This document shows positions 2,482-18,469 of a stretch of 21,054 nucleotides of DNA, one piece after another. A program made the position numbers and the translations under genes. Where the stretch lies: assembly GCA_030531335.1 (NCBI GenBank), contig JAUNNV010000029.1:1-21054 (forward strand), written 5' to 3'. The notes under the pieces are model-generated. The model was not told the DNA's origin, did not search any database, and was given only the letters and a program-made list of their open reading frames with translations. The number at the start of each line of letters is the position of its first letter. Position 1 is the first letter of the stretch. The stretch is from Bacteroidales bacterium (GTDB lineage Bacteria > Bacteroidota > Bacteroidia > Bacteroidales > Bacteroidaceae).

Positions 2482-3849
2482 CTAATCGGCCTTTTCGGCA
2501 TTTTCAACCGTTTTCTCCTTTACCAAGTAAGAAGGCAGGTCGAGTCCTGCTTGGTTGAAAAGGTCGTGGAGCGGTGGCACACTCTTCATCAGTCCGGACA
2601 GAAAGTTGGCCGTCGAACCCTTTCCGTCGGCAGAGTTTCCACTGTCCCACACGGTGACGTGGTCGATGTTGACACCCTTGATGGCCTCGACCTGTGTGCG
2701 CACCAGTTCGGGAAGCTTTTCGGTGAGCAATAGCATGTAGGCCTTGTTGGCATCGCCTCCGGCAGCCTCGACCATCTGCTTGTAGCCGGCCGCCTGCTTG
2801 GTGAGCACCTCGTAGTAACCCTTGGCTTCGGCCTCCATGCGGGCATAGATGGCATCGGCCTCACCCTTGGCGTTGACACGAATCTTCTCGGCTTCGGCCT
2901 CGGCCTCGATGATGCGGCGTTTCTTCTCGATCTCTTGGCTTACGAGTACGTTTGCCGTCTGCGTGGAGCGTTCGCGCTCGGCGCGAGCCTCCTCTGCCTC
3001 GCGCTCGGCGGCGTAGGCCTCTTGTAGGGCCCGTGCCGATGCCACCTTCTCGGCAGCCGACGCACGGCGCAGTGCCTCGGCCTCCTTCTCGCGTCGGAAA
3101 GCCTCGGAGTTGGCAATATCCACCTTTGCGTTGTTCTCGCCCTGCACGGCCTGTGCGTTGGCTTCGGAGGTGCGTATGCGGGTCTCGCGTTCGGCCTCGG
3201 CCTTGCCTATGGCACCAATCTTGTCTTGCTCGGCCACACGAACCTTCGCCTCGTTGATGGCCTTGGCGGCGGCTTCACGGCCGAGAGCCTCGATGTAGCC
3301 CGACTCGTCCTTGATATCGGTGACATTCACATTGATAAGTCGCAAGCCTATTTTCTTCAGTTCCACTTCCACGTTGGCACTGATGCTTTCGAGAAACTTG
3401 TCGCGGTCGTTGTTCAGTTCCTCAATGCTCATGGTGGCGATTACCAGACGGAGCTGTCCGAACAGGATGTCGCGGGCGAGTTCCTGAATCTGCGTCGGCT
3501 TGAGGTCGAGCAGACGCTCGGCGGCGGCGTTCATGGATTCCGGATCGGTGGATATACCCACCGTGAAGCGGCTGGGCACATCGACACGGATGTTCTGGCG
3601 CGAGAGCGCATTGGTGAGATTGGCATCGATGGAAATGGGCGTAAGGCTCAGGTATTGATAATCCTGAATGATAGGCCACACGAAGGTGCCACCTCCGTGG
3701 ATGCACTTGGCCGACCCTCGTTTCCCGGTGGTGCCATAAACTACAAGGATTTTGTCGGACGGACAACGACGATAACGCTTGATGATGGAAGCGAAAAGGA
3801 TGATGCCGACGAACACTACGGCCACCATCAGATACATGGATTCTAACAT
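2482..3849 (-). CDS. Flotillin-family SPFH/Band-7 protein (YqiK/FloT-like)
   Basis: An N-terminal TM segment (MVAVVFVGIILFASII) is followed by an SPFH-like region. A long Ala/Glu/Arg-rich coiled coil follows (EAERETRIRTSEANAQAV...AEREAEEARAERER) and then a flotillin-type C-terminus. The gene is downstream of an NfeD-like gene, the classic yqiJ-yqiK arrangement. Confidence 0.85.
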   Translation of the reverse strand: MLESMYLMVAVVFVGIILFASIIKRYRRCPSDKILVVYGTTGKRGSAKCIHGGGTFVWPIIQDYQYLSLTPISIDANLTNALSRQNIRVDVPSRFTVGISTDPESMNAAAERLLDLKPTQIQELARDILFGQLRLVIATMSIEELNNDRDKFLESISANVEVELKKIGLRLINVNVTDIKDESGYIEALGREAAAKAINEAKVRVAEQDKIGAIGKAEAERETRIRTSEANAQAVQGENNAKVDIANSEAFRREKEAEALRRASAAEKVASARALQEAYAAEREAEEARAERERSTQTANVLVSQEIEKKRRIIEAEAEAEKIRVNAKGEADAIYARMEAEAKGYYEVLTKQAAGYKQMVEAAGGDANKAYMLLLTEKLPELVRTQVEAIKGVNIDHVTVWDSGNSADGKGSTANFLSGLMKSVPPLHDLFNQAGLDLPSYLVKEKTVENAEKAD

Positions 3850-3856
3850 GACAAAT

Positions 3857-3904
3857 ATGATAATTTTGAATTATGAACTTATGATAATTAAGAATTATGA
3901 CTTG
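3857..3904. repeat. AT-rich imperfect 24-bp direct repeat x2 in the nfeD-flotillin spacer
   Basis: atgataattttgaattatgaactt (3857-3880) is followed by atgataattaagaattatgacttg (3881-3904). About 19 of 24 positions are identical, including the shared blocks atgataatt and aattatga. Confidence 0.6.
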
Positions 3905-3945
3905 CGAAGTTTGATGATCGAATCGAACAATCTTAACTCAAAATA

Positions 3946-4518
3946 TTATATGGTGGATACTTTCACGGTGGATTCGTCGATGACAGCCTCTATGCGTACC
4001 TTGCGGCCTGTAGGAATATCGACACCGTCCGAAACGGCTGTGAGCTCATGGATGGAACCATGGACAGACACTTGTATCTGGCCTTTTCCCTGTGGTGGTA
4101 TGTGCAGATAGACATCGGCCACCAAGCCCACACAATCGGCCAGCGACCAAGCACCGTTGCGTTCGAGTTTGCGTGTCTGACGGAAAATGAATACGAACAA
4201 TGCCACAAACAAGGAGCCTGTGACCACCGACAAGAAACCCGCGAATAGATGGCTGCCGACCAAGGGGTAAAAGCAGATGCCTCCCCATCCGATGCCCATG
4301 AGAAGGGCGACGACATTCTTCACGCTGAACAGGTTGAGGCCACCCCCCATGTCGAGGGTGTTGTCAACGTCGAAGTCGGCATCGGTGTCGGTCGCATCGA
4401 TGCCAATGAAGGTTAGGATGGATTGGACGACAAACACGATGGTGGAAATGCCGGCAATCCACCAATAAAAACGGAGCATTGGGTCGAGCGATGCGTACCA
4501 GATAGACAATTCATTCAT
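3946..4518 (-). CDS. NfeD-like membrane protein (YqiJ/YuaF-like, C-terminal OB-fold), flotillin partner
   Basis: The ORF 3946..4584 is trimmed to MNELSIWY... at 4518. It has hydrophobic TM helices (WWIAGISTIVFVVQSILTF; LLMGIGWGGICFYPLVG; FLSVVTGSLFVALFVFIF). A C-terminal beta-rich region GKGQIQVSVHGSIHELTAVSDGVDIPTGRKVRIEAVIDESTVKV is typical of short NfeD. It lies immediately upstream of the flotillin gene. Confidence 0.7.
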   Translation of the reverse strand: MNELSIWYASLDPMLRFYWWIAGISTIVFVVQSILTFIGIDATDTDADFDVDNTLDMGGGLNLFSVKNVVALLMGIGWGGICFYPLVGSHLFAGFLSVVTGSLFVALFVFIFRQTRKLERNGAWSLADCVGLVADVYLHIPPQGKGQIQVSVHGSIHELTAVSDGVDIPTGRKVRIEAVIDESTVKVSTI

Positions 4519-4549
4519 GTTTTGATGTGTTTTCGTTGTTTTACGTTGG

Positions 4550-4557
4550 CAAATATA
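4550..4557 (-). promoter_or_regulatory. Candidate -7 promoter box (TATATTTG) for the nfeD-flotillin operon
   Basis: The minus-strand sequence ccc-TATATTTG-ccaacg lies about 32 nt upstream of the ATG at 4518. A TTTG lies about 20 nt further upstream at a -33-like position. Confidence 0.35.
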
Positions 4558-4591
4558 GGGACAAATAGATGAATTGCAAAACAAATCGGCA

Positions 4592-4669: not shown

Positions 4670-7108
4670 TCACATTTCGACCAAATGGAAGGAGGTCTGT
4701 CCTATCTGGAAGCTTTCGCCATGCCAGAGTTGATATTCCTTTCCAAGCGCGAGATATTTGCCCCCCTTCAAGGTGATGCCATCTACGGCACAGATACGCA
4801 CTACGCCATGCCTTTCATAAACCTTCACCTGCACGGGAGCCACGTCGCTTTGGAGATCCCAAGTGAGTTGCAAGGCGCAATCGACCGACTTGCCGATGGT
4901 GACAACTGTGTGAGGTGATGAGCGTAGCCATTTGTAGAGTGCGATGTCCATATCCTTGACAGATCCCGACACGTGCAGGAAAAAATGCTTGCCGACCGAC
5001 AAGGGTTGAGTCATGCACACCGCTATGGCCACACCATAGCCGATGAACACGAACAATGTCTTCATTAGTTCCGAAACCGTCTGTAGTTCCGCAACCATTT
5101 CCCAAAACAAAGTGCTCGCCACACCCACGACAGCCAGCATCAGCCACTGTCGCCTTTTGAGCCACAGGCGCGAATGATAGGTGGATACACAAGCGATGAC
5201 AAGTGTAGTCAGCACCCAAGGCAGCAGGTCGAACACAAACGAGCCCTCGTAAAGATTGAGCACGACAAGAGTGGCATTGTTGAAAACGAACACAAAAAAC
5301 ACGAGGACACACGCCACGGATGCCCGGACGAACTGCCCAAACAACCTTATGTGCCAACTATACTTGAACAACGTGAAGATTGACAGGGCAAAGGTAAGGA
5401 CGAAACCGATGATGCAACCAAATGTGGGAAGTGTATATAAACGTGAGGAGATGATGTCCAAATCCTGGGGGGAAAATGGGGATACACCTTGCTCGTGAAA
5501 GCCCAACAAGGAAATCGCGATACCATCGAAGAGGTCGAGAAAGAGTGAGCGAAAATGTGGATCCCACACAACCAACCAACCGATCGACGCCGCAGCGATG
5601 GCTACAAGGATCCAGCGTGTGAAGGGGGATGCGTTTTGAGGGTCGAGCAAGTTGGAACGGTTGTAATAATGCGAGCCATCGGGGCAATGCCTTCCATGTT
5701 CGGGGCAATGTTGTCCGTTTTCATTCCAACACTCCAAATGCATCACATGGCTGCATCTTGCCACGATACGGTCGCCCACGGCAAAGGGAGCCTTACAGTA
5801 ATAACATTCGTCGGGGATGGCGATGGCATTGATGCTCATGCGCCCCCCTGTATAGGTGAGGACATACTTGCGCTGAAAGATGACATAGCGTACAAATGGT
5901 TCCAACAGTTGCAAGGCCACGTAGGCGAGCAACAAGACCAGCAAGGCGATAATGATGCCGCGTGAAGCGATGTGGCCGGGCGATTTGTACCCACCGGTAA
6001 CGATTGGCACGTCAATGCTTCCGCACGCATATTCCTTGGAGCACCGGGCAATCAGGCTGTCGTTCCGGTCGTGGAAACTCAATTCCAGCCTGCGCGAACA
6101 GCCGTAGTAGATTTTCCCATCGGGATTCTCGAGCCGGATGGCGAAATCGGGATAGCCAATGCCGAAGGACGCGAAATTGTGTTTGCGCAACTCGACGGCA
6201 CTCAAACCATCGATGACACCCCCCCCCGATTGCTGGCAGAACACCTGCATCATATCCTTGTCGTCGGTGGAACTGTTTCCAGAGTCGGTCGAGGGAGTAC
6301 ACACGTAGCAAATGGCGGGTGCGGAAAACGAGGTGTCGGCGAGTTGTTGTAGGATTTGAGCCTGCACCCAGTAGTGGTCGGGGTCGAGAGGCGTATTGTC
6401 CGTCTCGTCATACACATGGCTGTCCGACAGTATCGCGATGGTGCGGTATGCAGCCGAGTCGAGAGGTGTTCCGGTGCCTTTGCGCAGTTTGCCGAGCATG
6501 AAGTACAAGGCACGATACACGTAAGGAGGAAGTTTGGTGTCGGACACACGATATTTGGAATTGCCGTTTACGTAATTGTCGATTACGTATGGCGAGACCT
6601 CCATGATAGGCGACAACTCGCCTTCGGAAAGGATGAACGAGATAAACACATTCCCATCGCCATACAGACGTATCAGCGAACGGATGTAGTCGCGTTCCTT
6701 TTCAAGCATGTCGGACGATTGGCACAAATCGACCATCAGCAGCAACTTGAGTCCCAACTTGGCATTTTCGGAAGCCACCACGTTGTTGAAGGAAACGACA
6801 TGTGGATGGGTCGATTCTGACCAAGGCACGAACTGGCGTTTCAGCTCCTTCACTGTCATGTGGATCAAGGAGCTGTCCTCAAGTAGGTATTTGTCCAAAT
6901 CATGGGTAATGTCCAACTCCAAGCTTATCTGTTTCACGTCGGTTGAAACGTTCATCGAGCGTATGGCCAAGGCATGGGTCTCGTGTTCGACCGAAGAAGG
7001 ATTCAACTCCGTGAACCGACTGCACGAGGCAAGTAGCAGAATGTATGGTAGCCAGACAGCAAACTGGCTGAAACGACGGAAACAACAAATTACAGACGGT
7101 TTCATCAT
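4670..7108 (-). CDS. Multi-domain membrane protein: lipoprotein signal + periplasmic (possibly vWA-like) domain + TM + cytoplasmic RING-H2 zinc finger + ~6-7 TM helices + C-terminal FHA domain; putative membrane E3-like ligase
   Basis: The N-terminus MMKPSVICCFRRFSQFAVWLPYILLLASCS has a lipobox. TM1 is IIIALLVLLLAYVALQLL. The RING-H2 pattern is C-x2-C-x13-C-x-H-x2-H-x2-C-W-x6-C-x2-H (ECYYCKAPFAVGDRIVARCSHVMHLECWNENGQHCPEH), with a Trp after ligand 6 as in E2-binding RINGs. Hydrophobic helices follow. The C-terminal GKSVDCALQLTWDLQSDVAPVQVKVYERHGVVRICAVDGITLKGGKYLALGKEYQLWHGESFQIGQTSF fits the FHA consensus (G..x..C.L....S..HA.I...........). Domain calls are motif-based only. Confidence 0.75.
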   Translation of the reverse strand: MMKPSVICCFRRFSQFAVWLPYILLLASCSRFTELNPSSVEHETHALAIRSMNVSTDVKQISLELDITHDLDKYLLEDSSLIHMTVKELKRQFVPWSESTHPHVVSFNNVVASENAKLGLKLLLMVDLCQSSDMLEKERDYIRSLIRLYGDGNVFISFILSEGELSPIMEVSPYVIDNYVNGNSKYRVSDTKLPPYVYRALYFMLGKLRKGTGTPLDSAAYRTIAILSDSHVYDETDNTPLDPDHYWVQAQILQQLADTSFSAPAICYVCTPSTDSGNSSTDDKDMMQVFCQQSGGGVIDGLSAVELRKHNFASFGIGYPDFAIRLENPDGKIYYGCSRRLELSFHDRNDSLIARCSKEYACGSIDVPIVTGGYKSPGHIASRGIIIALLVLLLAYVALQLLEPFVRYVIFQRKYVLTYTGGRMSINAIAIPDECYYCKAPFAVGDRIVARCSHVMHLECWNENGQHCPEHGRHCPDGSHYYNRSNLLDPQNASPFTRWILVAIAAASIGWLVVWDPHFRSLFLDLFDGIAISLLGFHEQGVSPFSPQDLDIISSRLYTLPTFGCIIGFVLTFALSIFTLFKYSWHIRLFGQFVRASVACVLVFFVFVFNNATLVVLNLYEGSFVFDLLPWVLTTLVIACVSTYHSRLWLKRRQWLMLAVVGVASTLFWEMVAELQTVSELMKTLFVFIGYGVAIAVCMTQPLSVGKHFFLHVSGSVKDMDIALYKWLRSSPHTVVTIGKSVDCALQLTWDLQSDVAPVQVKVYERHGVVRICAVDGITLKGGKYLALGKEYQLWHGESFQIGQTSFHLVEM
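6219..6227. repeat. 9-nt homopolymeric C run (G9 on the coding strand) inside the RING-FHA gene
   Basis: Plus gacaCCCCCCCCCgat, coding TCG GGG GGG GGT (SGGG) within QSGGGVIDGLS. Confidence 0.9.
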
Positions 7109-7110
7109 TG

Positions 7111-8076
7111 TCAGATGGTGGGATATTCGTTATCGTTAAATTGTGTCATGGACTTGTACTGCTTCGCCGCTTTCTTGGCGGCCTTCAGAGCGGCATATTT
7201 GCTCTTCATCATTGAAACAAACATCAGGATGATGGCTACGGCAGCCAAACTCATCAAGGAATCCTTCAGATGTTGCATCAGAGGCACATACTTCGCCTGT
7301 TGCACCTTGTCGGATTGCGCCTTTATCTCGGCGAACAACTGGCTGAGGCTGTCCATACGATTCTTTAGCGAAGGCACCAGCAATGCGGCTTGGGTGGCCT
7401 GTTGAAATGTTTGCTGCAATTCGGCAAAGGCGATTTGTTCCTTGGCTTGCAGCTGTTGCAGCAGAGGAGCCGTCTTGGCGGTCAGCGACAGCCTCTGGGA
7501 TTCCGACAGATATTGACTGTACTGATGCCGTTTCGATTCCAGCAGTTTTTCGGCCCGTGTAATGTCCTCCATCGCCTGCAGTCGGGCTTTTTGGGCTGCA
7601 ATCGAGTCCGACACGACTTGGAAGGTCACCTGAAAAGCCGTGAACTTGTCCATCAGAATCTCGTTTTCCACAATGTCTTGTTGTCGTACTTGCGTATAGA
7701 TATTCCATTGTACATTCACATTCTGCAACATCCGATCCAGTCCTTTTAATTCTGTCATCTTGGCCTGCGAAATACTTTTCCCGATATTGAGCAGTGTGGA
7801 TATGTATGCGTCCATCTCGCCCATCGTGGCGTTGGATTGTCCGCTTGGATGCGATGTCGTGGGTAAGTCTGAATAGACATCGAACTTTGTGGGCGTAGCC
7901 CATACAGACATGGTAGCCGATATGGTCACAAGCAGGATGGTGCAGAATGAGTAAACAACTTTTGTCACAATTGATTTCCTGTTATTGGCTTCGCCCATAA
8001 CAGACTGCGTCTCGGCATAACCAAGGTAGGCTTGCCTCTGCTCTTGGCTTGCGCTGTTATTCAAATTCACTGACAT
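7111..8076 (-). CDS. Bitopic/two-TM coiled-coil membrane protein, function unknown
   Basis: The ORF 7111..8232 is trimmed to the first Met lying near the stop of the upstream gene (MSVNLNN... at 8076). The start is uncertain; alternatives are 8232, 8115 and 7998 (MGEANNRK...). It has TM segments VVYSFCTILLVTISATMSVWA and LMSLAAVAIILMFVSMM flanking a long Gln/Leu-rich coiled coil. It lies 2 nt upstream of the RING-FHA gene. Confidence 0.55.
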   Translation of the reverse strand: MSVNLNNSASQEQRQAYLGYAETQSVMGEANNRKSIVTKVVYSFCTILLVTISATMSVWATPTKFDVYSDLPTTSHPSGQSNATMGEMDAYISTLLNIGKSISQAKMTELKGLDRMLQNVNVQWNIYTQVRQQDIVENEILMDKFTAFQVTFQVVSDSIAAQKARLQAMEDITRAEKLLESKRHQYSQYLSESQRLSLTAKTAPLLQQLQAKEQIAFAELQQTFQQATQAALLVPSLKNRMDSLSQLFAEIKAQSDKVQQAKYVPLMQHLKDSLMSLAAVAIILMFVSMMKSKYAALKAAKKAAKQYKSMTQFNDNEYPTI

Positions 8077-9277
8077 GTTTGAAGAAATATTTCGCTGCTG
8101 TGTCGAAAATGCCATACGCACGACGCTGTTCTTCGTTGTATATGCCTTTTTCCTCAACACCTTGCTTGGTGACGTTGATGATGTCGCGACCCATAAAGTA
8201 GATATCGCGTCGTTCCAACTCATTTTTCGCAACCAGATTTTGCGCCACCAGTTTGTCTAATTGACGTGCCGCTCGGACAAGTGCTTCGGGCGAAATACCT
8301 GTGCCGTAGAGCACGCTGCCCTCTTCCGTCAGCTCTACCGGGACGGCGCATTTCAGGGATTCAATCGAATCCACGTAGTTGTTGTAACTGTCGCGCACCA
8401 TATTCACATCGGCACATGACGATTTCGTCTCTATCGGTTGGAATTTCGACAACAGAAATTCTTGATGTTGCTTGAACACGCCGACCTCCTCGGCGGATTC
8501 CACCTTGCCTGAAGGACATATCTGATGGAGCTTCCGATACGCTTTCCGGATATCCATCAACTTGGCTTTCATGACAGCCAACGCCTCTTGTTGACCATGG
8601 CAAGGATTGCGGGCCAATGCCACCCGACAAGTAAGGTCAAGATCGTGATCGAATACTATCTCGTATTCCCGTCCTTTCTGAGTGTCTTTCAACACATCCA
8701 CCACCATGATGTTGCGAATGCGCAACGTCACATCGGATGCCTCCGGATTCACCTTGAACCGTTGTGTCAAAATTTTCTGACTTAACTTCGGCAATGTCTG
8801 AGGCGAGTCTGTCGCACTTGTCGGCAGATAGGTAGCAGGACAGGCAATGGTGAGCGAGGCGGAGTTCGGTTCCACCCAGGCATTGATAAGGTGATGGCGG
8901 CGTTTCTTCCGATACGACTTATACACCGATTCTCTTAGGTAATATTTCGAATTAGGCTCTACCAGCACCTTATATTGCAATTTCTCGGCATGAAGCCGAC
9001 GTTTGCCAAGAAACGGATGGGTAAACACATCGTTGTAGGATACGTCCTGACGGAAAGCCATGAAATCGCGATTGCCAGACAACGTGAGAACCAACTCGTC
9101 GGCAGCCTCTTCGAAAGCAAGCGTCAGGTCAAGCTCCAAGCCTTTGTCGTCGAAGGCAATCTGTATTTTCTCCTGATAAGGCGTGTCGGCATCCACACGC
9201 ACGTTTTTGGTCTCTTGAGCCTGTGCCAGGGCAGCACAGCAGGCCATGAAAAGGCAGAAGAATTTAGTCTTGGTCAT
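8057..9277 (-). CDS. Secreted hypothetical protein (406 aa) with N-terminal signal peptide
   Basis: ATG at 9277; MTKTKFFCLFMACCAALAQAQ-ETKN is a signal peptide. A long ORF with mixed composition and several Cys. It overlaps the E2 gene end by 14 nt. No recognisable catalytic motif. Confidence 0.65.
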   Translation of the reverse strand: MTKTKFFCLFMACCAALAQAQETKNVRVDADTPYQEKIQIAFDDKGLELDLTLAFEEAADELVLTLSGNRDFMAFRQDVSYNDVFTHPFLGKRRLHAEKLQYKVLVEPNSKYYLRESVYKSYRKKRRHHLINAWVEPNSASLTIACPATYLPTSATDSPQTLPKLSQKILTQRFKVNPEASDVTLRIRNIMVVDVLKDTQKGREYEIVFDHDLDLTCRVALARNPCHGQQEALAVMKAKLMDIRKAYRKLHQICPSGKVESAEEVGVFKQHQEFLLSKFQPIETKSSCADVNMVRDSYNNYVDSIESLKCAVPVELTEEGSVLYGTGISPEALVRAARQLDKLVAQNLVAKNELERRDIYFMGRDIINVTKQGVEEKGIYNEEQRRAYGIFDTAAKYFFKHVSEFE

Positions 9278-9860
9278 AATATATCCAATTGTTTGGTTCT
9301 CCTTGTGTCCGAACCCAATAGGCTACTTTCAAATCCTCTGGGTAAGGAGGTTCGGGCAGTGCATGGTAGATTTCGTAGCGCAGATACAGTGCGATGCGTT
9401 CCACAGCCCATGCCAAACTGCTGTGTGTGTTGGGCATGTTCACACACACACGTCCTGCCAGGCTACCATGATACCCTATGTTGGGATGCCAAGGCAACGT
9501 GTCGCCCACAAAACGGAAGCAAGGCATAGCATCTACCTGAGGATAACGTTCGGGAAGTTTTATCTCCATCCGAAACTCATGGGCGAAAATAGGACTGCCA
9601 TCCACATTCACCCCACAGATACATTTTATAAAATAGTCTATCGAGTAGGCCGTAGGGATTCCTTCAGGGGTGGCATCGACCACTTGCATGGCGATGTCGT
9701 TGCGTTGTTTCACAAAGGCGGCAAGCTGCTCCCACTCGTAAAACAGTCGGTGTGCGCGTCCTCGAAGAGGCTTGTTCTGAAACCAGCTTGTCCCGGGCGA
9801 AGTCAAGGAAAGGGGTTTACCCTGGGAATGGATCGGGGATGAGGAAAATTGTGTCGCCAT
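9264..9860 (-). CDS. Ubiquitin-conjugating enzyme (E2/UBC-fold) homologue
   Basis: The UBC core motif is ...FRMEIKLPERYPQVDAMPCFRFVGDTLPWHPNIGYHGSLAGRVCVNM... (YP.xP, HPNI, G...C). It can be laid alongside UbcH5 ...[34 protein letters not shown]. An N-terminal RLFYEWEQL helix is present and LPEPPYPEDL lies downstream. The ATG at 9860 overlaps the Ubl gene end by 44 nt; an alternative TTG start lies at 9806. Confidence 0.8.
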   Translation of the reverse strand: MATQFSSSPIHSQGKPLSLTSPGTSWFQNKPLRGRAHRLFYEWEQLAAFVKQRNDIAMQVVDATPEGIPTAYSIDYFIKCICGVNVDGSPIFAHEFRMEIKLPERYPQVDAMPCFRFVGDTLPWHPNIGYHGSLAGRVCVNMPNTHSSLAWAVERIALYLRYEIYHALPEPPYPEDLKVAYWVRTQGEPNNWIYYDQD

Positions 9861-10140
9861 TGTTCACATTATAGTCGGCAAGCGTCTGTTCGGTTTTCCC
9901 AATGCGCGGCCGCATCACGCGAATCTCGTGCACGACCTCGTCTTCTTTCCCAAAGAAATAATCGAGGGGTGCTCCTGTGCTGTCGATGGAGGGAAAGTCG
10001 AATATCAGTCGGCCATCTTGTCCGGTTGAATGTTTCAGGTTGTTCATCAATGCGCCCAATGGGAGTTGCGGATTGATGACGCGGAACTTCACCTTTTTGT
10101 CCTTATAGACAATGTTAATGAAAAAATCGTCTTGGTGCAT
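9817..10140 (-). CDS. Ubiquitin-like (beta-grasp) protein ending in a C-terminal Gly
   Basis: The C-terminal 22 residues TLADYNVNNGDTIFLIPDPFPG match ubiquitin 55-76 [22 protein letters not shown] position by position (T,L,D,Y,N,I/V,T,I/L,L,I/V, terminal G). The stop codon follows the Gly directly. RLIF and a KVKFRVI beta-hairpin lie upstream. The ATG at 10140 is 23 nt after the tssF stop. Confidence 0.75.
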   Translation of the reverse strand: MHQDDFFINIVYKDKKVKFRVINPQLPLGALMNNLKHSTGQDGRLIFDFPSIDSTGAPLDYFFGKEDEVVHEIRVMRPRIGKTEQTLADYNVNNGDTIFLIPDPFPG

Positions 10141-10163
10141 GTTTCGTCAATGATGGTTGATGG

Positions 10164-11927
10164 TTATTTGCTACGCGAATCTAAGTCAATCTTCACTTGG
10201 ATGGGGCAGATGCCCGTAGTACGCACCTCCATGAGCCTTTGTAGGTGATTTTCGATACTGGCAAAATGTTTTCCCAACGCACGTTTCACATACATGTTGT
10301 CGTGGAGCACGATACCTACCACGATGCAATAAGCATGATAGCTACCTCGTGTAAGCACCTGCTTGTGCGTACGTATGGAGGCTATCATTTCCTGCTCTAC
10401 ATTGAACCGTGTGGCCAATTCCTGATAACAAAACAACTTTAGATCTGTTTCGGTGACAAGCCGGTCGTCGGTGGCTATGAAGTAGCGTGTAGCCGTCCTC
10501 ATGGCTTCCTCGGACAACAATTCGTCGTATCCTGGTTGAGGAATCGTCACTTGATGGGATTTGGACTGGTCGAAACCTGGGGGTACCACAAACACGGCAT
10601 CGGAGGTGAGCACACTGTTCACTACAGCTCCGTTAGTGGTCAGATAGCCGACATTGAGTGAAGTGTTTTCTGGGCTTTGTCGAAGGGTGTCGCCCCAACT
10701 ATCCTTCGAGCGTTCGTGAGGAATGCCGGCAAACATCAGATAGACACCCTCGTGCGAGGTTCGCAAATGTGGATGCGTGTGTTGCGACAACTCCTTCAGG
10801 TTGTTGCGCAGGTTGTGCATCACCATGTCGGTATATTCGTTGCCCATGGCCTGAAACGCATAATAGTCGGATGTGTATTTGTCGATGAGGCCCGACAACA
10901 ACCTGTGCAGCCTCCCCTCGTTGAACCTGTCGGCACCTATGCGCCGCACCTGTAGCCGGACATTGCCTAATAGTTGGTCCTCGTCGGGACGTAGCAGATG
11001 AAGAAACTGCCCATTGTTCTTGTCATCGATACGCTGTATAGGCGCATCGGCCGAGAGGGTGGCTGTTTTCACTTCGGCGTTCACTATCAAGGCGATGTTG
11101 ACAAGCAAATCGCTCTCTTTGAAAGAAAAGTTGTCGTCGATGCCGTCGAACTCGAAGGTGAGTTCCATGCGATCAATGGCATCGATATCGTCCATTTCAT
11201 CTACGACATACAGCAATAGGTTTTGTCGGGCATACAAATCCAGGGCGCAGAAGTTGCGATAGGCAGCCATGCCTTGGAACACGTTGCCCGAACGTACGGC
11301 TTGCGACTGATTGTAGAGCAACGTATCAAGCGAGAAACAGTCGGCACACGGCAGATTCGCAAAGTCCCACGGTGCGATGAGGGGTATTTCCCTATCGCTC
11401 ATGCTTACACGCAGGCCATGGAAATCCTGGTTCTTCAAGGCAAACGCAAGGCCTTTTAGGCTTTTCACCTTGTGTGGAAAGAACATATTGACTTGCCATC
11501 TCCTTCCATCCACGCGCCTCAGCCCATCCATCTCCACCTGTATGGCTTTGGTCTTGAGCAAGGGGATGAAGTTGAAGTTGTTGTTGTCGGTTCCTTTTAA
11601 GATGAATCTCATGGACGAATCGACATCCATTTCCGTCACATTGGGCATCAGAGCCAATTGCACGACGGCTGTGGCTGGAATGGCCTTGACTGGTTCGTTC
11701 ACGCAAAGCATGTTCTGGAACTCGTCGAGCAGCTCCGTCCGCAATGCCTCCAACTCGTTGTCCGACTCGTTGAATTGATAGGCCAGTGCCGTAATCAGGA
11801 ACTTGAACAGCGGATCCGAATCCAGTCCCTCAAGACTGTCGCTTCTGTTGTTGCGGTGCCAAATATCCACACATTGGGCCATCAGCTCCTTGGCGCGTTG
11901 TCTTATTTCAAATATGTTCTGTCTCAT
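10164..11927 (-). CDS. tssF: TssF-like baseplate protein (phage gp6 / baseplate-J family)
   Basis: 587 aa, directly after the gp25-like gene. The N-terminal block DPLFKFLITALAYQFNESDNELEALRTELLDEFQNMLCVNEPVKAIPATAVVQL resembles the TssF signature DP.VERLLEGFAFL...L.DEFPE...LL..L.P...P.PS..IVQF. The size and gene order (tssE-tssF) fit. Confidence 0.75.
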   Translation of the reverse strand: MRQNIFEIRQRAKELMAQCVDIWHRNNRSDSLEGLDSDPLFKFLITALAYQFNESDNELEALRTELLDEFQNMLCVNEPVKAIPATAVVQLALMPNVTEMDVDSSMRFILKGTDNNNFNFIPLLKTKAIQVEMDGLRRVDGRRWQVNMFFPHKVKSLKGLAFALKNQDFHGLRVSMSDREIPLIAPWDFANLPCADCFSLDTLLYNQSQAVRSGNVFQGMAAYRNFCALDLYARQNLLLYVVDEMDDIDAIDRMELTFEFDGIDDNFSFKESDLLVNIALIVNAEVKTATLSADAPIQRIDDKNNGQFLHLLRPDEDQLLGNVRLQVRRIGADRFNEGRLHRLLSGLIDKYTSDYYAFQAMGNEYTDMVMHNLRNNLKELSQHTHPHLRTSHEGVYLMFAGIPHERSKDSWGDTLRQSPENTSLNVGYLTTNGAVVNSVLTSDAVFVVPPGFDQSKSHQVTIPQPGYDELLSEEAMRTATRYFIATDDRLVTETDLKLFCYQELATRFNVEQEMIASIRTHKQVLTRGSYHAYCIVVGIVLHDNMYVKRALGKHFASIENHLQRLMEVRTTGICPIQVKIDLDSRSK

Positions 11928-11943
11928 CGTTATGCACCCTTCA

Positions 11944-12387
11944 TTAGTTCCATACGTTTATGATGTTGCTGTACTGAAAAGGCTCGTTTGTATCGCCCAA
12001 CAGGCCGGTTATTTCCACCAATACTTGCCGTTGGTCGCGGCGGTAGTTCATTACTACCTTTGGTGAGAGCAACCGAGGCTCATACACCTCGATGCTATGC
12101 TTCAGGTCGGAGGCGAATGTCTGTAGGTTCTTCGAGGAGCCGGAAACTTTCTTCTTGTATATTGGATTCCGGCTGTCACGAGAATCGAACACCGTCCCCT
12201 CGTTCTCGTCGAAAATCTCAAATCTCAACGTGGAGAACACAAAGCCATAATCCGGATCGATGGGCAAAGAGCCCAACGGTGTGTCCATCAGGAGCTGTAG
12301 CGAATCCCTGACCGATTGCTCCAACCCGTTCGACTGATGGAGGAACCTGCCCGACACTACCTGTAAAGGACTTTGCAAGTATTTCAT
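11944..12387 (-). CDS. tssE: TssE / gp25-like baseplate wedge protein (GPW_gp25 family)
   Basis: 147 aa. SVRDSLQLLMDTPLGSLPIDPDYGF and IEVYEPRLLSPKV match the gp25/TssE motifs (..NL..LL.T..G.....P.fG / I..fEPRL). The ATG at 12387 overlaps the upstream stop in an ATGA. Confidence 0.85.
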   Translation of the reverse strand: MKYLQSPLQVVSGRFLHQSNGLEQSVRDSLQLLMDTPLGSLPIDPDYGFVFSTLRFEIFDENEGTVFDSRDSRNPIYKKKVSGSSKNLQTFASDLKHSIEVYEPRLLSPKVVMNYRRDQRQVLVEITGLLGDTNEPFQYSNIINVWN

Positions 12388-13589
12388 ATCAATGGTGTGA
12401 AAACATCTTCCGGCTGATGTTCCTCCTTGGCCACGAGACCAGACAGCGCATTGAACAATGCAGGGTAAAGTTCCTGATATAGCCTATCGTGCAATGCTTC
12501 GTACAGCACTTCTTTCAGCTTCGGACGAAGTCGATCGTCCACGTATGCCTGCAGTTTTTCCGTGATTGTCGCGGTCAGTTCAGGCATCACCACGTCGCGA
12601 AGTTCCATGCGGATTTTTTCGTCTATTTGCTGCTTCAATTGTTCAAGAAGTTGTGTGTACAACTCTCTCTTCAGCGCCTCCACATCGATGTGGCGACTTT
12701 CCGTCACCACATCGTCCATGGACAGTAGCAAGGCGTTCATGAATTCTTTGAGCCACGACAGGTAGGCTCGGATATGGTTTGTGTGAGGCACGCGGCGAGG
12801 GTCGGCGGCCAGCTCGCGCGTGGGTTCTTGTCCTGAGCCCTGCCGAAGGACTTGTTGGCCTCCCAATCCCAATCGGATGTGGTAATCCAAGGCTTGATCC
12901 GTTTCGCGCAACAGTCGCACAAGCTCCACTACCGACTCCTTGCCGGTGAGGCTCTGTAGCCGGAAACACAGATGTAACAAGGTGCGTTTGCCGTCACCAT
13001 CCTCCATGTTGCGGTGGGTAGCCAGCTTCGTGAGTAGTTCCACATACATGCTTACGAACTCTCCGAAAGCCTTGTGCGAGGCTGTCGAGATCATGGGAGG
13101 CACATACGAGGCATCCACATTGAGCAGGTCGCCCTCTACGTAAAGCCTCTTCAGCGGCAGTACGTCCAAACTTTCGTCGGCACGTTCCAACTCGTCCAGC
13201 GAATGCAGCGAGAGCTCGTAAACGGGAGCCTTGTAGGGTATGCCATCGCGTTCGAAACAATGTGTTTTCCCATTGGCAGGGCCGACGCACACAAAACATT
13301 CCGGCAACGGTTGCGACACGATGGTCAGCGTGAGGTCGTCATCTACGCTGAGCACGGCCCCCGATGGCAACAATGCCGTAAGCCTCAGATTGTTCATCTC
13401 GAAGGTGTTGCCCACAAAAGCGCCCTCAACGTGTAGTGGGTACATGGGGAGAATGCCCATGCCGACACTCCCTATGGCGGCGCGGAGCAACAGTTGCTGA
13501 CGGTTGTCGAAGTCGTGTTGCTGATGGACGAAGACCCCAGAGGTGAGCTCCATCCCTGGTTGCCAATGTATATTTGCGTTGTAATACAT
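12384..13589 (-). CDS. tssK: TssK-like baseplate protein (N-terminal shoulder domain) with C-terminal coiled-coil region
   Basis: The N-terminus NIHWQPGMELTSGVFVHQQHDF...LLRAAIGSVGMGIL resembles the TssK start (W.EGM.L.PQHFQQ.D...LAR.G...WG). 401 aa, 4-nt ATGA overlap with tssE. The C-terminal half is helical/coiled-coil, so this is an atypical TssK and only moderately confident. Confidence 0.55.
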   Translation of the reverse strand: MYYNANIHWQPGMELTSGVFVHQQHDFDNRQQLLLRAAIGSVGMGILPMYPLHVEGAFVGNTFEMNNLRLTALLPSGAVLSVDDDLTLTIVSQPLPECFVCVGPANGKTHCFERDGIPYKAPVYELSLHSLDELERADESLDVLPLKRLYVEGDLLNVDASYVPPMISTASHKAFGEFVSMYVELLTKLATHRNMEDGDGKRTLLHLCFRLQSLTGKESVVELVRLLRETDQALDYHIRLGLGGQQVLRQGSGQEPTRELAADPRRVPHTNHIRAYLSWLKEFMNALLLSMDDVVTESRHIDVEALKRELYTQLLEQLKQQIDEKIRMELRDVVMPELTATITEKLQAYVDDRLRPKLKEVLYEALHDRLYQELYPALFNALSGLVAKEEHQPEDVFTPLI

Positions 13590-13631
13590 GCCTTTATGTC
13601 ATTTTATGATGGATTTTGGTTTCGCGACTCA

Positions 13632-14432
13632 TCATTCATAGTCCTTAATTACGATATTGTAGTTCATGATTTTCCCTTCCTCCGACTTGCCCTTGGCTCC
13701 TGCCTCAAACAGGCAGTCGAAAGGAATGAACCGGCTGTGCACAAATGCAAGCATACGTTCCCATCGTTTGGTAAGGTCGGCGTATGCGGTGGCTGTCAGA
13801 CCATCCACACAAATGTCGTAATGCACTTTTTGCATCCAAAAGCGTGTGTTGTCGCATTCGTTGTACGCCGACAAACGCATCCGCACCGGATAACCCGTGA
13901 CAACGCTCAGCAATGATTTTACAAACGACAAGTTGCCACGGAGTTTGGCCACGTATGGCAGCAACACCGCCACCTTGCGCACATACTCGTCCGTTTCCGC
14001 CTCCAAGTCGAACTTGTAGGATGTTTTTAACACGAATTCGAGCTTGCGGGCCAGCAAGTCGGCCACGATGTGTTCCCGCTTCAGCTTCTGCCTGAACATG
14101 AACGAGTCGATGGGTAGGAAAGTTTCTGACAGTGTCCTTATCCGCTCATGCAACTGTTGGGCAAGCTGTTTGAAATCGCCTTTTCGTTTCCTTCCGAAAC
14201 GGTCGGATGCCTTCAGCTCATCCTCCGATCCTAAAAACAAGGGAGGCAGATAGTGTAGGAAGCCGTTGCGCGAAAGCGATACGATTGCTTCCTTCGGATT
14301 GATGGACAACACATCCGGCGCATAGTTCCTGCTGAAGGAACCTTTCTGATAGGCCAGCCACTTGTCTTCCAGCTCTGGATACAAATAGTTGAGCAACAGT
14401 TCCGCACTTATCTCGTGCCTGTCGGTTGTCAT
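13632..14432 (-). CDS. Hypothetical cytoplasmic protein (266 aa), translationally coupled downstream of E1
   Basis: The ATG at 14432 overlaps the E1 stop (ctATGAcaa). There is no signal peptide or TM segment and no motif I can name. It lies 42 nt upstream of the tssK-like gene. Confidence 0.6.
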   Translation of the reverse strand: MTTDRHEISAELLLNYLYPELEDKWLAYQKGSFSRNYAPDVLSINPKEAIVSLSRNGFLHYLPPLFLGSEDELKASDRFGRKRKGDFKQLAQQLHERIRTLSETFLPIDSFMFRQKLKREHIVADLLARKLEFVLKTSYKFDLEAETDEYVRKVAVLLPYVAKLRGNLSFVKSLLSVVTGYPVRMRLSAYNECDNTRFWMQKVHYDICVDGLTATAYADLTKRWERMLAFVHSRFIPFDCLFEAGAKGKSEEGKIMNYNIVIKDYE

Positions 14433-15478
14433 AGTTCCACGTACCTATATCCTGTTGGGGTCTTTATTCTCACAATGTCGTGTGCTGGAATGCCCAACGC
14501 AGCCAATGGCAGCGTGGGGTAGGGGAACGAGGTGTCTATCTCCGCATATTCGTGTTGGCATAGTTTCGCCATCGGTATGGTCGAAAGTCGTGGATGTTGC
14601 TTCACGAAGCCAGCCATTCGGCGTGCCGGCAGCATTGCTTCCGTCTGTTCGCCCGTCTCTCGATTCTCTACATAATCCACAAAGGCATCGTTGAGCACCA
14701 CAGTGCCAATCCGCAGGAGTGATTTCAGCGAGTGTTCCCTGACTACTTCAATAGGCTCCCATTGCTCGTGCAGCACGCAATCGTCATCCCACGCCTCGAA
14801 CACGGCTTTCCGCACACTCAGGTTTTCGCCATCGTAGTAGCACATGTTTCGTTCCACTGGCACGCCTGCAATCACTTTCAATGCTTCGGCTGCTTGCCAG
14901 GCTCCTATCACGCTGGCCGCCACTGATGTGGTAGGGGCATGGCCAGCCGCTTCCATTTGCCGTATCACGCCCGAACAAGGCATCCGTCGGCGCAACTCGT
15001 CCAGTCCTTCCGTCCCGAGGCCACAAGCGTAGCAGTTCACGCCGGGCACAAACACCCGCATCGTCCCCTCCATGCCGATGATGCCACCGTCAATCCATGT
15101 CTTTCCTGCCCTCGTACAGAGGCGCTGGATGCAATAGCGGGTCCACCGGCTATCGACGCATCCCATCACCACGTTCATCTGCCGTATCAATGCCAATCCC
15201 ACATCGTATGCCACATCGCCATGGATGGCCTGCACATCGACGGTGGCGTTGATGCCTCTCAGCGCGTCCTTCACCACATCCACTTTGCGCCGACCCACAT
15301 CGACTGGCCTGAACAGGATGCTTCGTGTGAGGTTGCCCTGTTCCACCACATCGAAATCGACCACCACCAGATGCCCCACTCCAAGCAGTACGAGGTTTTT
15401 GAGCACCTCGTTGCCCAGGGCCCCACATCCCACCACCATGATGCGGGCATCGCGCAGCTTGTCTTCTTCGATGTTCAT
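14429..15478 (-). CDS. E1-like ThiF/MoeB-family adenylyltransferase (ubiquitin-activating-enzyme-like)
   Basis: The ORF 14429..15778 is trimmed to MNIEEDKLRDARIMVVGCGALGNEVLKNLVLLGVGHLVVVDFDVVEQGNLTR (Rossmann GxGxxG plus an acidic D..D motif typical of E1/ThiF). Downstream are CYAC (CxxC) and MPCSGV (candidate catalytic Cys in a PxCT-like context). The 100 codons upstream of this Met are Gly/Arg/His/Cys-rich junk. The ATG at 15478 overlaps the upstream stop (ggATGAac). Confidence 0.8.
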   Translation of the reverse strand: MNIEEDKLRDARIMVVGCGALGNEVLKNLVLLGVGHLVVVDFDVVEQGNLTRSILFRPVDVGRRKVDVVKDALRGINATVDVQAIHGDVAYDVGLALIRQMNVVMGCVDSRWTRYCIQRLCTRAGKTWIDGGIIGMEGTMRVFVPGVNCYACGLGTEGLDELRRRMPCSGVIRQMEAAGHAPTTSVAASVIGAWQAAEALKVIAGVPVERNMCYYDGENLSVRKAVFEAWDDDCVLHEQWEPIEVVREHSLKSLLRIGTVVLNDAFVDYVENRETGEQTEAMLPARRMAGFVKQHPRLSTIPMAKLCQHEYAEIDTSFPYPTLPLAALGIPAHDIVRIKTPTGYRYVEL

Positions 15479-16200
15479 CCGATTGGTAGTTTGTCCTGAA
15501 TGCTGTTGAAGACCTTGTCGAGCTTCATGCTCTGTCCGCCTTTTGTGATGTCCGTTGTGGATGTATCCTTCGCATTGCCGGCCACATGGCGGTTGTAGGC
15601 TTCCTCGATTTCCTTTTTCTTGTCGTTGTAGAGTCGTTCCATCATTTCGGAATACGTGTCGAAAATTTCCTGCAACTTGTCCTTGGCCTCTTTTACCGCC
15701 TCTTCCGAGCTTCCTACAGTGCGACTGGCTACCGCAGACGCAGCCCTCGTCTTTTCTGCCTCGATTTTCGTCTTGCATTCCGAGTAGAGTGCATCGGTGG
15801 CCGTGTCGAGTAAATCCTTGCGTTCCTTATTTACATCGGGCATCGTGAGCAGTAGGTATTTGGCATCGATGCCATTCTCATCGTCTGCCCCAGGAGCAGT
15901 TTCGAGCGTCACCTTGAATTCCGGATGCACTTCCGTGATGCCTTTGTAAATGCAGGAGAAGTACGCCGAATCCTTTGGATATACATTCATCATGTGTTTT
16001 TCGTTCTCATCCTCGTGCACTAAAATGTCGGCCACGTCCTCAATGCGTTTGTCCATGCCACCATACACCATCTCCACTCCCAGCAACGAAGAGGGATCGG
16101 CCTTGACACACACGTTGCAGAACAGGTACGACATGCTTGCCACATGTCCCAGCATCCTGTTCTGTGTTTCTATCAATGCGACTTCTACCGATCGTTTCAT
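15475..16200 (-). CDS. Hypothetical protein (241 aa; N-terminal globular part + acidic coiled-coil C-terminus), translationally coupled upstream of E1
   Basis: ATG at 16200; the stop overlaps the E1 ATG. No JAB/MPN HxH motif was found. The C-terminal region is Lys/Glu-rich (EAEKTRAASAV...EAVKEAKDKLQEIFDTYSEMMERLYNDKKKEIEEAY). Confidence 0.6.
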   Translation of the reverse strand: MKRSVEVALIETQNRMLGHVASMSYLFCNVCVKADPSSLLGVEMVYGGMDKRIEDVADILVHEDENEKHMMNVYPKDSAYFSCIYKGITEVHPEFKVTLETAPGADDENGIDAKYLLLTMPDVNKERKDLLDTATDALYSECKTKIEAEKTRAASAVASRTVGSSEEAVKEAKDKLQEIFDTYSEMMERLYNDKKKEIEEAYNRHVAGNAKDTSTTDITKGGQSMKLDKVFNSIQDKLPIG

Positions 16201-16239: not shown

Positions 16240-16629
16240 CTATTTGCCCTCTGCAAGGCACGCATTGCCGGGGAAGTTCACGGAGATGTTTCCACCCCAG
16301 TTGCACATACATTTGCAGTTGTCGAGCAGTGCAGGCATTTGTTTTACCATTTCTTTTCCTCCAGGCATCCATGGAGCGGCTATCACTGGCATGCAGGGCA
16401 TGGGCGTAAGTGCTCCGAATGCTGCAGCCGTGGCCGCAGCCACCTGAGGATTCGACAAGCTTTGGCACATGCCGAAAGGCATGATGTTCATCATCGGCTT
16501 GTTGTCGCCGATGTTTCCTATGGGTTTCCCCTGTACCTTTGGTCGGGTGGGATCCACCACCATGAAGTTGGAAGGAGCCATCCCGAACGAGCACTGCAGG
16601 ATTGCTCCGGCCGTTACGAATTTTCCCAT
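16240..16629 (-). CDS. DUF4280 PAAR-like spike-tip protein
   Basis: 129 aa. VTAGAILQCSFGMAPSNFMVVDPTRPKVQGKPIGNIGDNKPMMNIMPFGMCQSLSNP matches the DUF4280 pattern as I recall it (GA.L.CSFG..PS.L.V...V.G.P.A...D..P..NI.PFG.C). It lies 8 nt after the preceding gene. Confidence 0.75.
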   Translation of the reverse strand: MGKFVTAGAILQCSFGMAPSNFMVVDPTRPKVQGKPIGNIGDNKPMMNIMPFGMCQSLSNPQVAAATAAAFGALTPMPCMPVIAAPWMPGGKEMVKQMPALLDNCKCMCNWGGNISVNFPGNACLAEGK

Positions 16630-16638
16630 TGTATTTTT

Positions 16639-18423: not shown

Positions 18424-18469
18424 CTTTTTCAATTTAGGGTTGTCCTATCAATAGGCTTTGTCGAGGTTG

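Follow-up and report, generated by a model that had tools for sequence, protein, structure and literature searches.

A ubiquitin-like protein with a terminal glycine and its candidate E1-E2-RING partners in a type VI secretion locus of Bacteroidales

The 21,054-nt stretch of DNA analyzed here (contig JAUNNV010000029.1 of the Bacteroidales assembly GCA_030531335.1, referred to below as the window) raises the question of what a ubiquitin-like protein (Ubl) does among the genes of a type VI secretion system (T6SS). Its gene g08 encodes a 107-amino acid (aa) Ubl that ends in a glycine and, to our knowledge, conjugation of bacterial Ubls has been demonstrated experimentally only in anti-phage immunity (type II CBASS, Bil and Bub). 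The answer favored by the computational analysis, which we consider fairly probable, is that g08 is a Ubl modifier made in its mature form, with Gly107 as the last residue, and that it works in a dedicated conjugation cascade of a Bacteroidales T6SS(iii)-type locus, in which E1, E2 and RING proteins would tag a component of the secretion system.

The gene occupies positions 9817–10140, as given in a preliminary description of this DNA, and lies on the minus strand; its translation, MHQDDFFINIVYKDKKVKFRVINPQLPLGALMNNLKHSTGQDGRLIFDFPSIDSTGAPLDYFFGKEDEVVHEIRVMRPRIGKTEQTLADYNVNNGDTIFLIPDPFPG, starts with MHQDDFF and finishes with TLADYNVNNGDTIFLIPDPFPG, after which the stop codon follows directly. 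The same description claimed that the last 22 residues mirror residues 55–76 of ubiquitin, and this likeness proved to be beyond chance: the end-anchored ungapped comparison gave 8/22 identities and a BLOSUM62 score of 36, a value reached by none of 200,000 composition-preserving end-anchored shuffles of g08 (maximum 25; P < 5e-6), and with the match allowed at any position P was about 5e-5. The last strand, T97-I-F-L-I-P102, was aligned with T66-L-H-L-V-L71 of ubiquitin and the final glycine, at equal spacing after this strand, with ubiquitin G76, which is the position proposed for it earlier. The full-length local alignment was weaker (z = 4.4, empirical P = 0.0025) and covered ubiquitin residues 53–70 only, and over the core the two proteins were only about 15% identical. 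A search of the PDB sequences with the Ubl family profile matched almost only ubiquitin and its variants, always at residues 53–70, with marginal single-domain E-values (about 0.8 for one ubiquitin and 0.009 for a designed variant), the values of 1e-8 for polyubiquitins being the sum of nine weak repeats. Taken together, the alignments indicate a real resemblance that does not extend beyond the last helix-turn, the final strand and the tail.

The AlphaFold2 model of the Ubl, obtained with 30 homologues, had a mean predicted local distance difference test score (pLDDT) of 86.6 and a predicted template modeling score of 0.76, with the elements in the order beta-beta-alpha, a long conserved loop, a beta-hairpin, a short turn at TLADY, the final strand TIFLIP and the DPFPG tail. 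The structure prediction and Foldseek comparison, which had been recommended as a check in the preliminary description, thus returned a beta-grasp fold; of the two additions expected there, an insertion or an N-terminal extension, the model has an insertion of about 27 residues located after the RLIF strand, and the N-terminal extension is only about 6 residues long. The insertion region (DG-LIFDFPS-D--GAP-DYFF) is the most invariant part of the Ubl family. The fold is EccD-like, the top Foldseek matches included the Caldiarchaeum ubiquitin, and the Bil Ubl structures 8tyx and 8tyz were also matched.

Database searches at E <= 0.01 gave 543 clusters of Ubl matches, the top 120 being 70–95% identical, and 80 loci were collected from species-representative genomes of Bacteroides, Prevotella, Alistipes, Parabacteroides, Paludibacteraceae, Millionella, Mediterranea and others. 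The stop codon placed directly after the glycine, as noticed before in the single sequence, was found in all of these: the DPFPG-stop ending was present in 120/120 database homologues and 80/80 genome loci, that is, in 200/200 close homologues. The median identity to the window proteins over the 80 loci was 75% for the Ubl, 64% for the DUF4280 protein, 48% for E2, 47% for E1 and 26–43% for the rest. Judged by this conservation, g08 is a real gene under constraint and its product by far the most constrained protein of the locus, as ubiquitin is, which would be expected of a modifier fitting many partners. The Ubl itself had no match in Pfam, NCBIfam, PHROGs or PADLOC, and it was not matched in phage, plasmid or viral-contig collections, so that an origin of this kind is not supported. 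Neither signal peptides nor transmembrane (TM) segments were found in the Ubl, E1 and E2, and all three proteins are predicted to be cytoplasmic.

The putative E1 and E2 are encoded together with the Ubl in the same operon. The E1 (g13) matched Pfam ThiF at 1.4e-51, and its best relatives in the PDB were UBA7 (4e-26), UBA1 (1e-24), SAE2 and MoeB (1e-21 and 2e-21), followed by ThiF at 1e-17, with Cap2 of CBASS far lower (3e-6). Conserved in this protein are the nucleotide-binding motif GCGALGNEV, the CxxC motif NCYAC and, 15 residues after the latter, an invariant Cys267 (numbering of the long open reading frame, ORF), which stands at what we take to be the crossover-loop position of the reactive cysteine in ThiF, MoeB and UBA5. 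The E2 (g07), whose true start may be further downstream than that of the longest ORF, matched Pfam UQ_con at 4.8e-6 with a score of 26.7, just under the gathering cut-off of 27, and its profile was aligned through the catalytic core with UBE2K (4e-6) and Ubc13 in the PDB. Its motif PWHPNI..G..AGRVC was at least 95% conserved in 78 loci, and the HPN...Cys part was invariant, the presumed catalytic Cys being C139 in the numbering of the window ORF.

The last gene of the operon, g04, encodes a membrane protein with a lipobox Cys and seven hydrophobic or TM segments, which carries the invariant cluster C-x2-C-x13-C-x-H-x2-H-x2-C-W-x6-C-x6-C-x4-H in a cytoplasmic segment at about residues 416–490. 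Its eight invariant or near-invariant Cys/His ligands follow each other in RING-H2 order, with a Trp after ligand 6, and the profile of this zinc cluster was led in the PDB by the RING domains of RNF126, Pirh2, RNF24, Hrd1, ZNRF3 and Arkadia, some C2H2 zinc fingers being matched too. The AlphaFold2 model (pLDDT 76.8) consisted of a periplasmic part built as beta-sandwich/vWA/beta-sandwich, a TM helix, a small zinc domain, a six-helix bundle and a C-terminal beta-sandwich. Foldseek identified the periplasmic part with vWA domains and the C-terminal part with FHA domains, including the cytoplasmic domain of YscD from the type III secretion system, and a precomputed Pfam FHA match was present in 6/15 g04 homologues; the zinc domain is too small to show in a whole-chain fold search. 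According to the modeled topology, the RING and FHA domains would be on the cytoplasmic side of the membrane, in the same compartment as the Ubl, E1 and E2, which makes g04 a candidate E3 and a candidate subunit of the membrane complex.

The Ubl, E1, E2 and g04 genes belong to one operon: from position 4670 to 18432 all genes are on the minus strand, with intergenic gaps of -44 to +42 nt, and are transcribed in the order g16, g15, g14, g13 (E1), g12, g11, g10, g09, Ubl, E2, g06, g05 and g04 (Table 1). This gene order was collinear in essentially all of the 80 genome loci. The genes for E1, E2, Ubl and the candidate RING protein are interleaved with T6SS core genes, the E1 gene standing before the g12-TssK-TssE-TssF run and the Ubl-E2 pair after TssF, and T6SS genes flanked the Ubl gene in 80/80 loci.

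Table 1. Positions of the predicted genes in the window.
Feature	Position	Strand	Description
ORF, 782 aa	34..2382	+	overlaps the next ORF almost completely
ORF, 596 aa	499..2289	-	opposed to the preceding ORF
SPFH/Band7 and NfeD-like genes	2482..4584	-	just downstream of the cassette
g04	4670..7108	-	812-aa membrane protein: lipobox, vWA domain in the periplasm, one TM helix, RING-H2-type zinc cluster in the cytoplasm, six further TM helices, cytoplasmic FHA
g05	7111..8232	-	coiled-coil, hydrophobic segments near both ends; fixed position in 75/80 loci
g06	8057..9277	-	406 aa, N-terminal signal peptide, predicted periplasmic; fixed position in 78/80 loci
g07, E2	9264..9860	-	conjugating enzyme of the UBC fold, HPN...Cys; 44-nt overlap of the longest ORF with the 3' end of the Ubl gene
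g08, Ubl	9817..10140	-	107-aa ubiquitin-like beta-grasp protein ending DPFPG-stop
g09	10164..11927	-	divergent TssF-like baseplate protein; Pfam T6SS_TssF in 6/17 orthologues, best 9e-5
g10	11944..12387	-	TssE/gp25-like baseplate wedge; Pfam GPW_gp25 3.8e-10
g11	12384..13589	-	TssK-like baseplate protein; Pfam T6SS_VasE in 16/17 orthologues, best 1.1e-6; TIGR03353 TssK 9e-4
g12	13632..14432	-	266-aa soluble protein; TssG-like by position and size only
g13, E1	14429..15478	-	ThiF/UBA-type adenylating enzyme, 349 aa from internal Met; long ORF to 15778
g14	15475..16200	-	RRF-like, 241 aa; Pfam RRF 4.8e-12; always accompanies g16
g15	16240..16629	-	DUF4280, PAAR-like spike tip; Pfam DUF4280 1e-30
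g16	16639..18432	-	597-aa conserved VgrG-associated protein; directly 3' of VgrG in 32/34 metagenome loci with enough upstream sequence
BNR/sialidase-like gene	18470..19768	-	between the VgrG C-terminus and g16
VgrG-like spike, C-terminal part	19784..21054	-	at least 423 aa; truncated at the end of the contig, with an open frame up to the window edge

The assignment of the window to a Bacteroidales T6SS(iii)-type locus is supported by its own genes and by those found upstream of VgrG in related loci. The VgrG-like fragment at the window edge was homologous to the C-terminal region of long genes standing directly before g16 elsewhere, whose full-length counterparts are VgrG genes of about 1240 aa with Pfam Phage_base_V and Phage_GPD domains. 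In metagenome loci anchored on g16, Hcp/TssD (1.4e-23), TssC (4e-102), a TssB-sized gene and ClpV were found upstream of VgrG, the TssC and TssD Pfam families matched being presumably the Bacteroidetes T6SS(iii) ones. The full arrangement reads ClpV, TssB-sized gene, TssC, two Hcp genes, p160, VgrG, g16, PAAR-like gene, g14 and a variable region, followed by E1, g12, TssK, TssE, TssF, Ubl, E2, g06, g05 and the RING protein; it was identical in every locus with enough sequence on both sides, with TssB and TssG assigned by size and position only. The possibility of a "baseplate-only" cassette devoid of sheath and tube was rejected, since ClpV, the TssB-sized gene, TssC, Hcp and VgrG stand directly upstream in the g16-anchored loci; the contig of the window ends inside VgrG. 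No matching Pfam families for TssN, TssO, TssP, TssQ or TssR and no gene for a protein with five TM segments and a Ubl domain were found in the locus by family and TM scans, which did not include reference TssN–TssR sequences; what g04 has in common with the described TssR is limited to a vWA domain and the lipoprotein type (PMC10781749).

The search of 1.8 billion representative proteins recovered full-length Ubl relatives down to about 25% identity. Those with 25–45% identity were also located in T6SS loci together with E2, a RING protein and E1, despite changes in gene order: the divergent layout includes TssC, TssD, VgrG, DUF4280, effectors, the E2-Ubl pair, g06- and g05-like genes, a protein of about 800 aa with the same RING motif, E1 and a g12-like gene. 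Five divergent loci had an extra gene between the g05-like and RING genes, encoding a 530–1051-aa protein with an invariant ETGC...WMHSHPxLxLFLSxxD, which contains an intact JAMM motif HxHx7Sx2D; its best PDB matches were the Caldiarchaeum Rpn11-like protease (2e-6), Rpn11/PSMD14, CSN5, AMSH-LP and BRCC36. This JAB gene was found neither in the window nor in any of the 160 loci of the DPFPG subfamily, as checked by tblastn and a six-frame motif scan. The preliminary description had seen no JAB peptidase in the window and, indeed, no ORF had a Pfam JAB match and the HxHx7Sx2D motif occurred neither in the cassette proteins nor in the six-frame scan. The ancestral module, as its relatives indicate, was the complete Ubl/E1/E2/RING/JAB set.

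In the wider Ubl family the conserved Gly is the very last residue of 39 proteins and is followed by a tail of 2–8 residues in 18, which looks like the classic precursor pattern. The idea that the peptidase occurs near tail-bearing Ubls and only near those was rejected on mixed results: each of the five divergent loci examined had JAB and no DPFPG locus had it, and two of the five JAB loci (near-identical, with one Ubl protein) have a Ubl ending at Gly. The loss of JAB goes with the DPFPG subfamily and not strictly with tails. It had been proposed earlier that no deubiquitinase or other processing step is needed to expose the C-terminus of g08, and this agrees with the invariant Gly directly before the stop codon, with the lack of JAB in this locus type and with the existence of relatives that have both JAB and tails.

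Several side observations concern the divergent members. In the locus L162 two E2 paralogues flank the Ubl gene (9369–9926 and 10398–10964 of that locus), both with HPN...Cys (HPNIRYFGSFRGRVC and HPNVTFFGDEKIKGRTC), and may be a pair of an E2 and an E2 variant. The Ubl profile also reached longer proteins (P0171, P0142, P0158, P0162 and P0165), one of which is 629 aa long with an E2-like N-terminus followed by a Ubl domain, while others have two or three beta-grasp repeats and a ...PIAG motif followed by longer C-terminal extensions; these proteins may link the g08 family to the multi-domain Ubls of the Bil and Bub operons.

The cascade which we propose would run as follows. The operon E1 would adenylate Gly107 and take the Ubl onto its conserved crossover-loop cysteine, from which it would move to the Cys of the HPN-type E2. 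The membrane vWA-RING-FHA protein g04 would recruit E2 charged with the Ubl to the side of the secretion apparatus that faces the cytoplasm. There the Ubl would be ligated to a lysine in one of the T6SS components, which could be a protein of the baseplate or of the membrane complex, or else g04, and assembly, docking or firing of the system would thereby be controlled. A number of points weigh against this scheme. Conjugation, its thioester chemistry, the catalytic E1 cysteine, the target and the consequence are all steps that we infer, and Cys267 was assigned as the likely E1 catalytic Cys by position and conservation only. The DPFPG tail is proline-rich with a single terminal Gly, unlike the flexible LRGG, and a few distant relatives have no terminal Gly (for example P0176, which ends with ...EPAPAAY). 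The RING domain of g04 was recognized by motif conservation and marginal scores (Pfam zf-RING_2 at 1e-3, below the cut-off, and PDB E-values of 0.03–1), and no deconjugating enzyme is encoded in the locus type of the window. Finally, TssN of T6SS(iii) already employs an unconjugated ubiquitin-like domain for docking of the baseplate (PMC10781749).

The TssN precedent leads to the view of g08 as a structural, non-covalent Ubl, that is, a free-standing adaptor of the EccD/YukD/TssN type which binds the baseplate (TssK) or the membrane complex and whose terminal Gly has no chemical role. It would leave unexplained why E1, a Cys-bearing HPN E2, a RING protein and, in the relatives, an Rpn11-like JAB were kept together across deep divergence, and why the Gly is invariant and exactly terminal in 200/200 close homologues and followed by short removable tails in relatives; we regard it as unlikely. 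About equally unlikely is the same cascade directed at cargo, in which the Ubl would be joined to VgrG, PAAR, Hcp or effectors to mark them for loading or export, or would be delivered into target cells itself, and would not regulate the machine. The divergent Ubl-E2 pair does stand directly after a VgrG-PAAR-effector block, which includes a Tle1-like lipase and proteins with type IX secretion tails, and VgrG, g16 and the PAAR-like gene are within the conserved block of the window. However, the auxiliary Hcp-VgrG-g16-g14 islands have no Ubl, E1 or E2, the Ubl of the window subfamily is located between TssF and the membrane proteins and not beside cargo, it is extremely conserved while cargo is variable, and the RING-type domain is anchored in a polytopic membrane protein that also has a vWA domain in the periplasm and resembles a part of the machine.

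Still less probable, in our estimate, is a Bil-like anti-phage module lodged in a T6SS locus and tagging phage tail or baseplate proteins homologous to T6SS parts. It is true that the characterized bacterial E1/E2/Ubl operons (Bil and type II CBASS) are antiviral and that the uncharacterized ones are assumed to be so (PMC10557695), and Bil tags a phage tail protein (PMC11601603). The genes considered here, in contrast, are interleaved with the T6SS core instead of being contiguous, collinear in 80 loci and flanked by T6SS genes in every Ubl-bearing genome locus among them, with the RING-type domain placed within a membrane protein; the association with T6SS survives rearrangement in relatives at 25–45% identity, and the PADLOC matches consisted of generic E1 and weak E2 similarity only. 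A sulfur-carrier or cofactor pair of the ThiS/MoaD-ThiF type, acting without protein conjugation, might be suspected from the compact, ThiF/MoeB-sized E1 with its CxxC zinc motif and its similarity to MoeB and ThiF, but it was already disfavored and is very improbable: no ThiG, ThiH or MoaE partners and no rhodanese domain were found in the locus, E2 and a candidate RING protein are present, the tail ends with PG and not GG, and the top PDB matches of E1 are the eukaryotic UBA7 and UBA1.

Within the favored interpretation, that of a T6SS component tagged by the E1-E2-RING cascade, a more specific version may be put forward tentatively, as a possibility with the odds rather against it. The tssN gene lies between tssK and tssG (PMC10781749), and the free EccD-like Ubl of the window adjoins the TssF, TssE and TssK genes. 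The cascade might be a built-in switch of T6SS assembly or firing, in which g04, as a RING E3 within the membrane complex, together with E1 and E2 would attach the EccD/TssN-like Ubl to the membrane complex or to the TssK baseplate, and so make, or regulate in an ATP-dependent way, the docking site which the canonical T6SS(iii) hard-wires as the Ubl domain of TssN. The ancestral Rpn11-like JAB would reverse the mark, and the lineage of the window would have lost it, leaving the Ubl constitutively mature.

Among the closest known systems is the "eukaryote-like" Caldiarchaeum/Asgard-type operon with ubiquitin, E1, E2, a small RING protein and an Rpn11-like JAB (PMC5654768), which agrees in its list of components with the present locus, where a RING-H2-type zinc cluster takes the place of the RING protein, and with the divergent relatives. 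The prokaryotic RING-E1-E2-JAB-Ubl systems that Burroughs, Iyer and Aravind reportedly predicted in 2011 would agree in the same way. The differences are that the candidate RING is here one domain of an 812-aa polytopic membrane protein with vWA and FHA domains, that the genes are interleaved with the T6SS core and that JAB is missing from the loci of the window subfamily; furthermore, the Caldiarchaeum ubiquitin has a 9-residue propeptide, while the window Ubl is apparently born mature and has the insertion of about 27 residues. Bil (BilABCD) is likewise a bacterial E1, E2 and Ubl cascade with a C-terminal Gly, and its target, a phage tail protein, belongs to the same structural world as the T6SS baseplate. 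It is, however, a compact stand-alone four-gene defense operon, in which a JAB deubiquitinase pre-processes the Ubl and no RING E3 is present, in contrast to the secretion-system locus described here with its candidate RING protein, no JAB in the subfamily and no need for processing. Bub (6E/DUF6527), also a family of bacterial E1/E2/Ubl operons with diverse Ubl architectures, forms Ser/Tyr oxyesters, its E1 and E2 have no catalytic Cys and it employs the serine protease DUF6527 (PMC11601596); here the E2 Cys was invariant in 78 loci, and no ORF of the window had a Pfam match to DUF6527.

TssN and EccD have the Ubl fused to transmembrane domains and YukD is free, none of the three being known to be conjugated or to have a cognate E1 and E2, whereas the window Ubl is free, has an invariant terminal Gly and is accompanied by E1, E2 and a candidate RING protein. 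The ThiS/MoaD carriers have a GG tail, an E1 without E2 or E3 and cofactor-synthesis neighbors, in contrast to the PG tail, E2 and candidate RING of the present locus, where no biosynthetic genes were found. Translation of Atg12, Urm1 and the archaeal SAMPs ends at the reactive Gly, with no processing protease needed, and Atg12 ends in a single Gly and has no dedicated deconjugase; these proteins have no sequence relationship with the window Ubl beyond the fold, and their E1/E2 types and biology are different. Another relative of ubiquitin in gut Bacteroidales is BfUbb of Bacteroides fragilis, a toxin that carries a signal peptide and is secreted, shares about 84% similarity with human ubiquitin and has a C-terminal Cys (PMC11901371), whereas the window Ubl is predicted to be cytoplasmic, has a local match to ubiquitin of only 17 residues and at best 8/22 identities with it, and ends in Gly.

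The TssF (g09) and TssK (g11) signals were seen only when each orthologue was scanned separately; g09 stands directly after the gp25/TssE gene and was kept in 78/80 loci. The g12 gene was kept in 74/80 loci and comes after the E1 gene in the divergent locus L164; its product had no TM segment and no family match. No family match was found for g05, g06 and g16, and nothing in the PDB was matched by the profiles of g16, g09, g11 and g12. The likely true start of g05 is at 7998, giving 295 aa, close to the approximately 291 aa of its orthologues. The RRF-like g14 is a fixed partner of g16 downstream of VgrG, both in the main T6SS loci and in auxiliary islands; it is inverted relative to its neighbors in some loci, and an adaptor, a chaperone or an immunity protein are possible roles.

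Loci with g16/g14 but without the Ubl were considered as counter-examples and rejected as such, being auxiliary Hcp-p160-VgrG-g16-g14 islands without Ubl, E1 and E2 (L127, L153, L116, L135 and L108), sometimes present as inverted pairs on one contig; they suggest multiple interchangeable modules of spike and cargo per genome. The C-terminal region of VgrG in the window had a G+C fraction of 0.42 (profile 20001–21000) against 0.48–0.57 elsewhere, and 24–34% identity between loci, which fits a swapped, polymorphic C-terminal domain (toxin or adaptor). The variable region between g14 and E1 contained a recurrent exported protein of about 450 aa (MxxxxLLxxxxxxAQxMRVEDF...KKQALLDF...) on either strand in the loci L087, L099 and L159. 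Loci L045, L047, L059, L060, L062, L075 and L077, with 71–76% Ubl identity, were labeled as Subdoligranulum, Acutalibacteraceae, Oscillospiraceae, Sphaerochaetaceae, Akkermansia, Flexilinea or Lachnospiraceae, for which mis-binning is the likeliest explanation, because all of them are "cleanbin" records with one style of contig names (Spades_H07xxx / Spades_G026xx).

Nothing 3' of g04 was conserved across related loci, and the Band7/NfeD and BNR genes of the window are outside the conserved block. The BNR/sialidase-like gene (Pfam BNR_2, 9.7e-16) had no homologue in any of the 80 related genome loci, a VgrG-like gene abutting g16 elsewhere where the sequence reaches; the g16 protein of the window was itself recovered only on a 5-kb Logan contig, which had the same layout. 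It could be a lineage-specific cargo or effector gene or an unrelated insertion. The SPFH/Band7 gene (9e-30) and its NfeD-like neighbor form an ordinary membrane-scaffold pair. Of the two opposed ORFs at the start of the window only that on the plus strand had a weak Pfam match (HHH_3, 6e-4), and neither was conserved in related loci.

A full-text search of the literature found no paper linking T6SS with E1, ThiF, E2 or Ubl, and reviews and surveys up to 2025 list only the GA1–GA3 architectures of T6SS in gut Bacteroidales, with E1, E2 and Ubl unmentioned. The operon type may already be listed in silico in a 2011 computational survey; the 2011 abstract of Burroughs, Iyer and Aravind reportedly states that prokaryotic RINGs work with E1, E2 and JAB and that YukD-like Ubls are possibly conjugated, which would fit the EccD-like fold of the window Ubl. 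Taken as a whole, the locus suggests a bacterial injection weapon controlled by ubiquitin-style protein tagging. The full E1-E2-RING(-JAB)-Ubl set would be an integral part, conserved from ancient times, of a secretion nanomachine that abundant Bacteroidales of gut and rumen carry, which points to a housekeeping, machine-regulating use of such tagging in bacteria. If true, the T6SS would here be controlled in a new way, which may be compared with phosphorylation by the Fha/PpkA pathway in the proteobacterial T6SS, and g04 would be one of the rare bacterial membrane RING E3s whose physiological context can be identified. The system is tractable, with cultured carriers (Millionella massiliensis Marseille-P3215, Bacteroides mediterraneensis An793, Mediterranea massiliensis, Caecibacteroides pullorum AN421, Parabacteroides distasonis An897 and Prevotella sp. 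ne3005), a modifier without need of processing and a short list of candidate substrates. It could explain how a T6SS variant works without a recognizable TssN, and is relevant to the question of how, before eukaryotes, RING E3s, FHA domains and Ubls were first combined.

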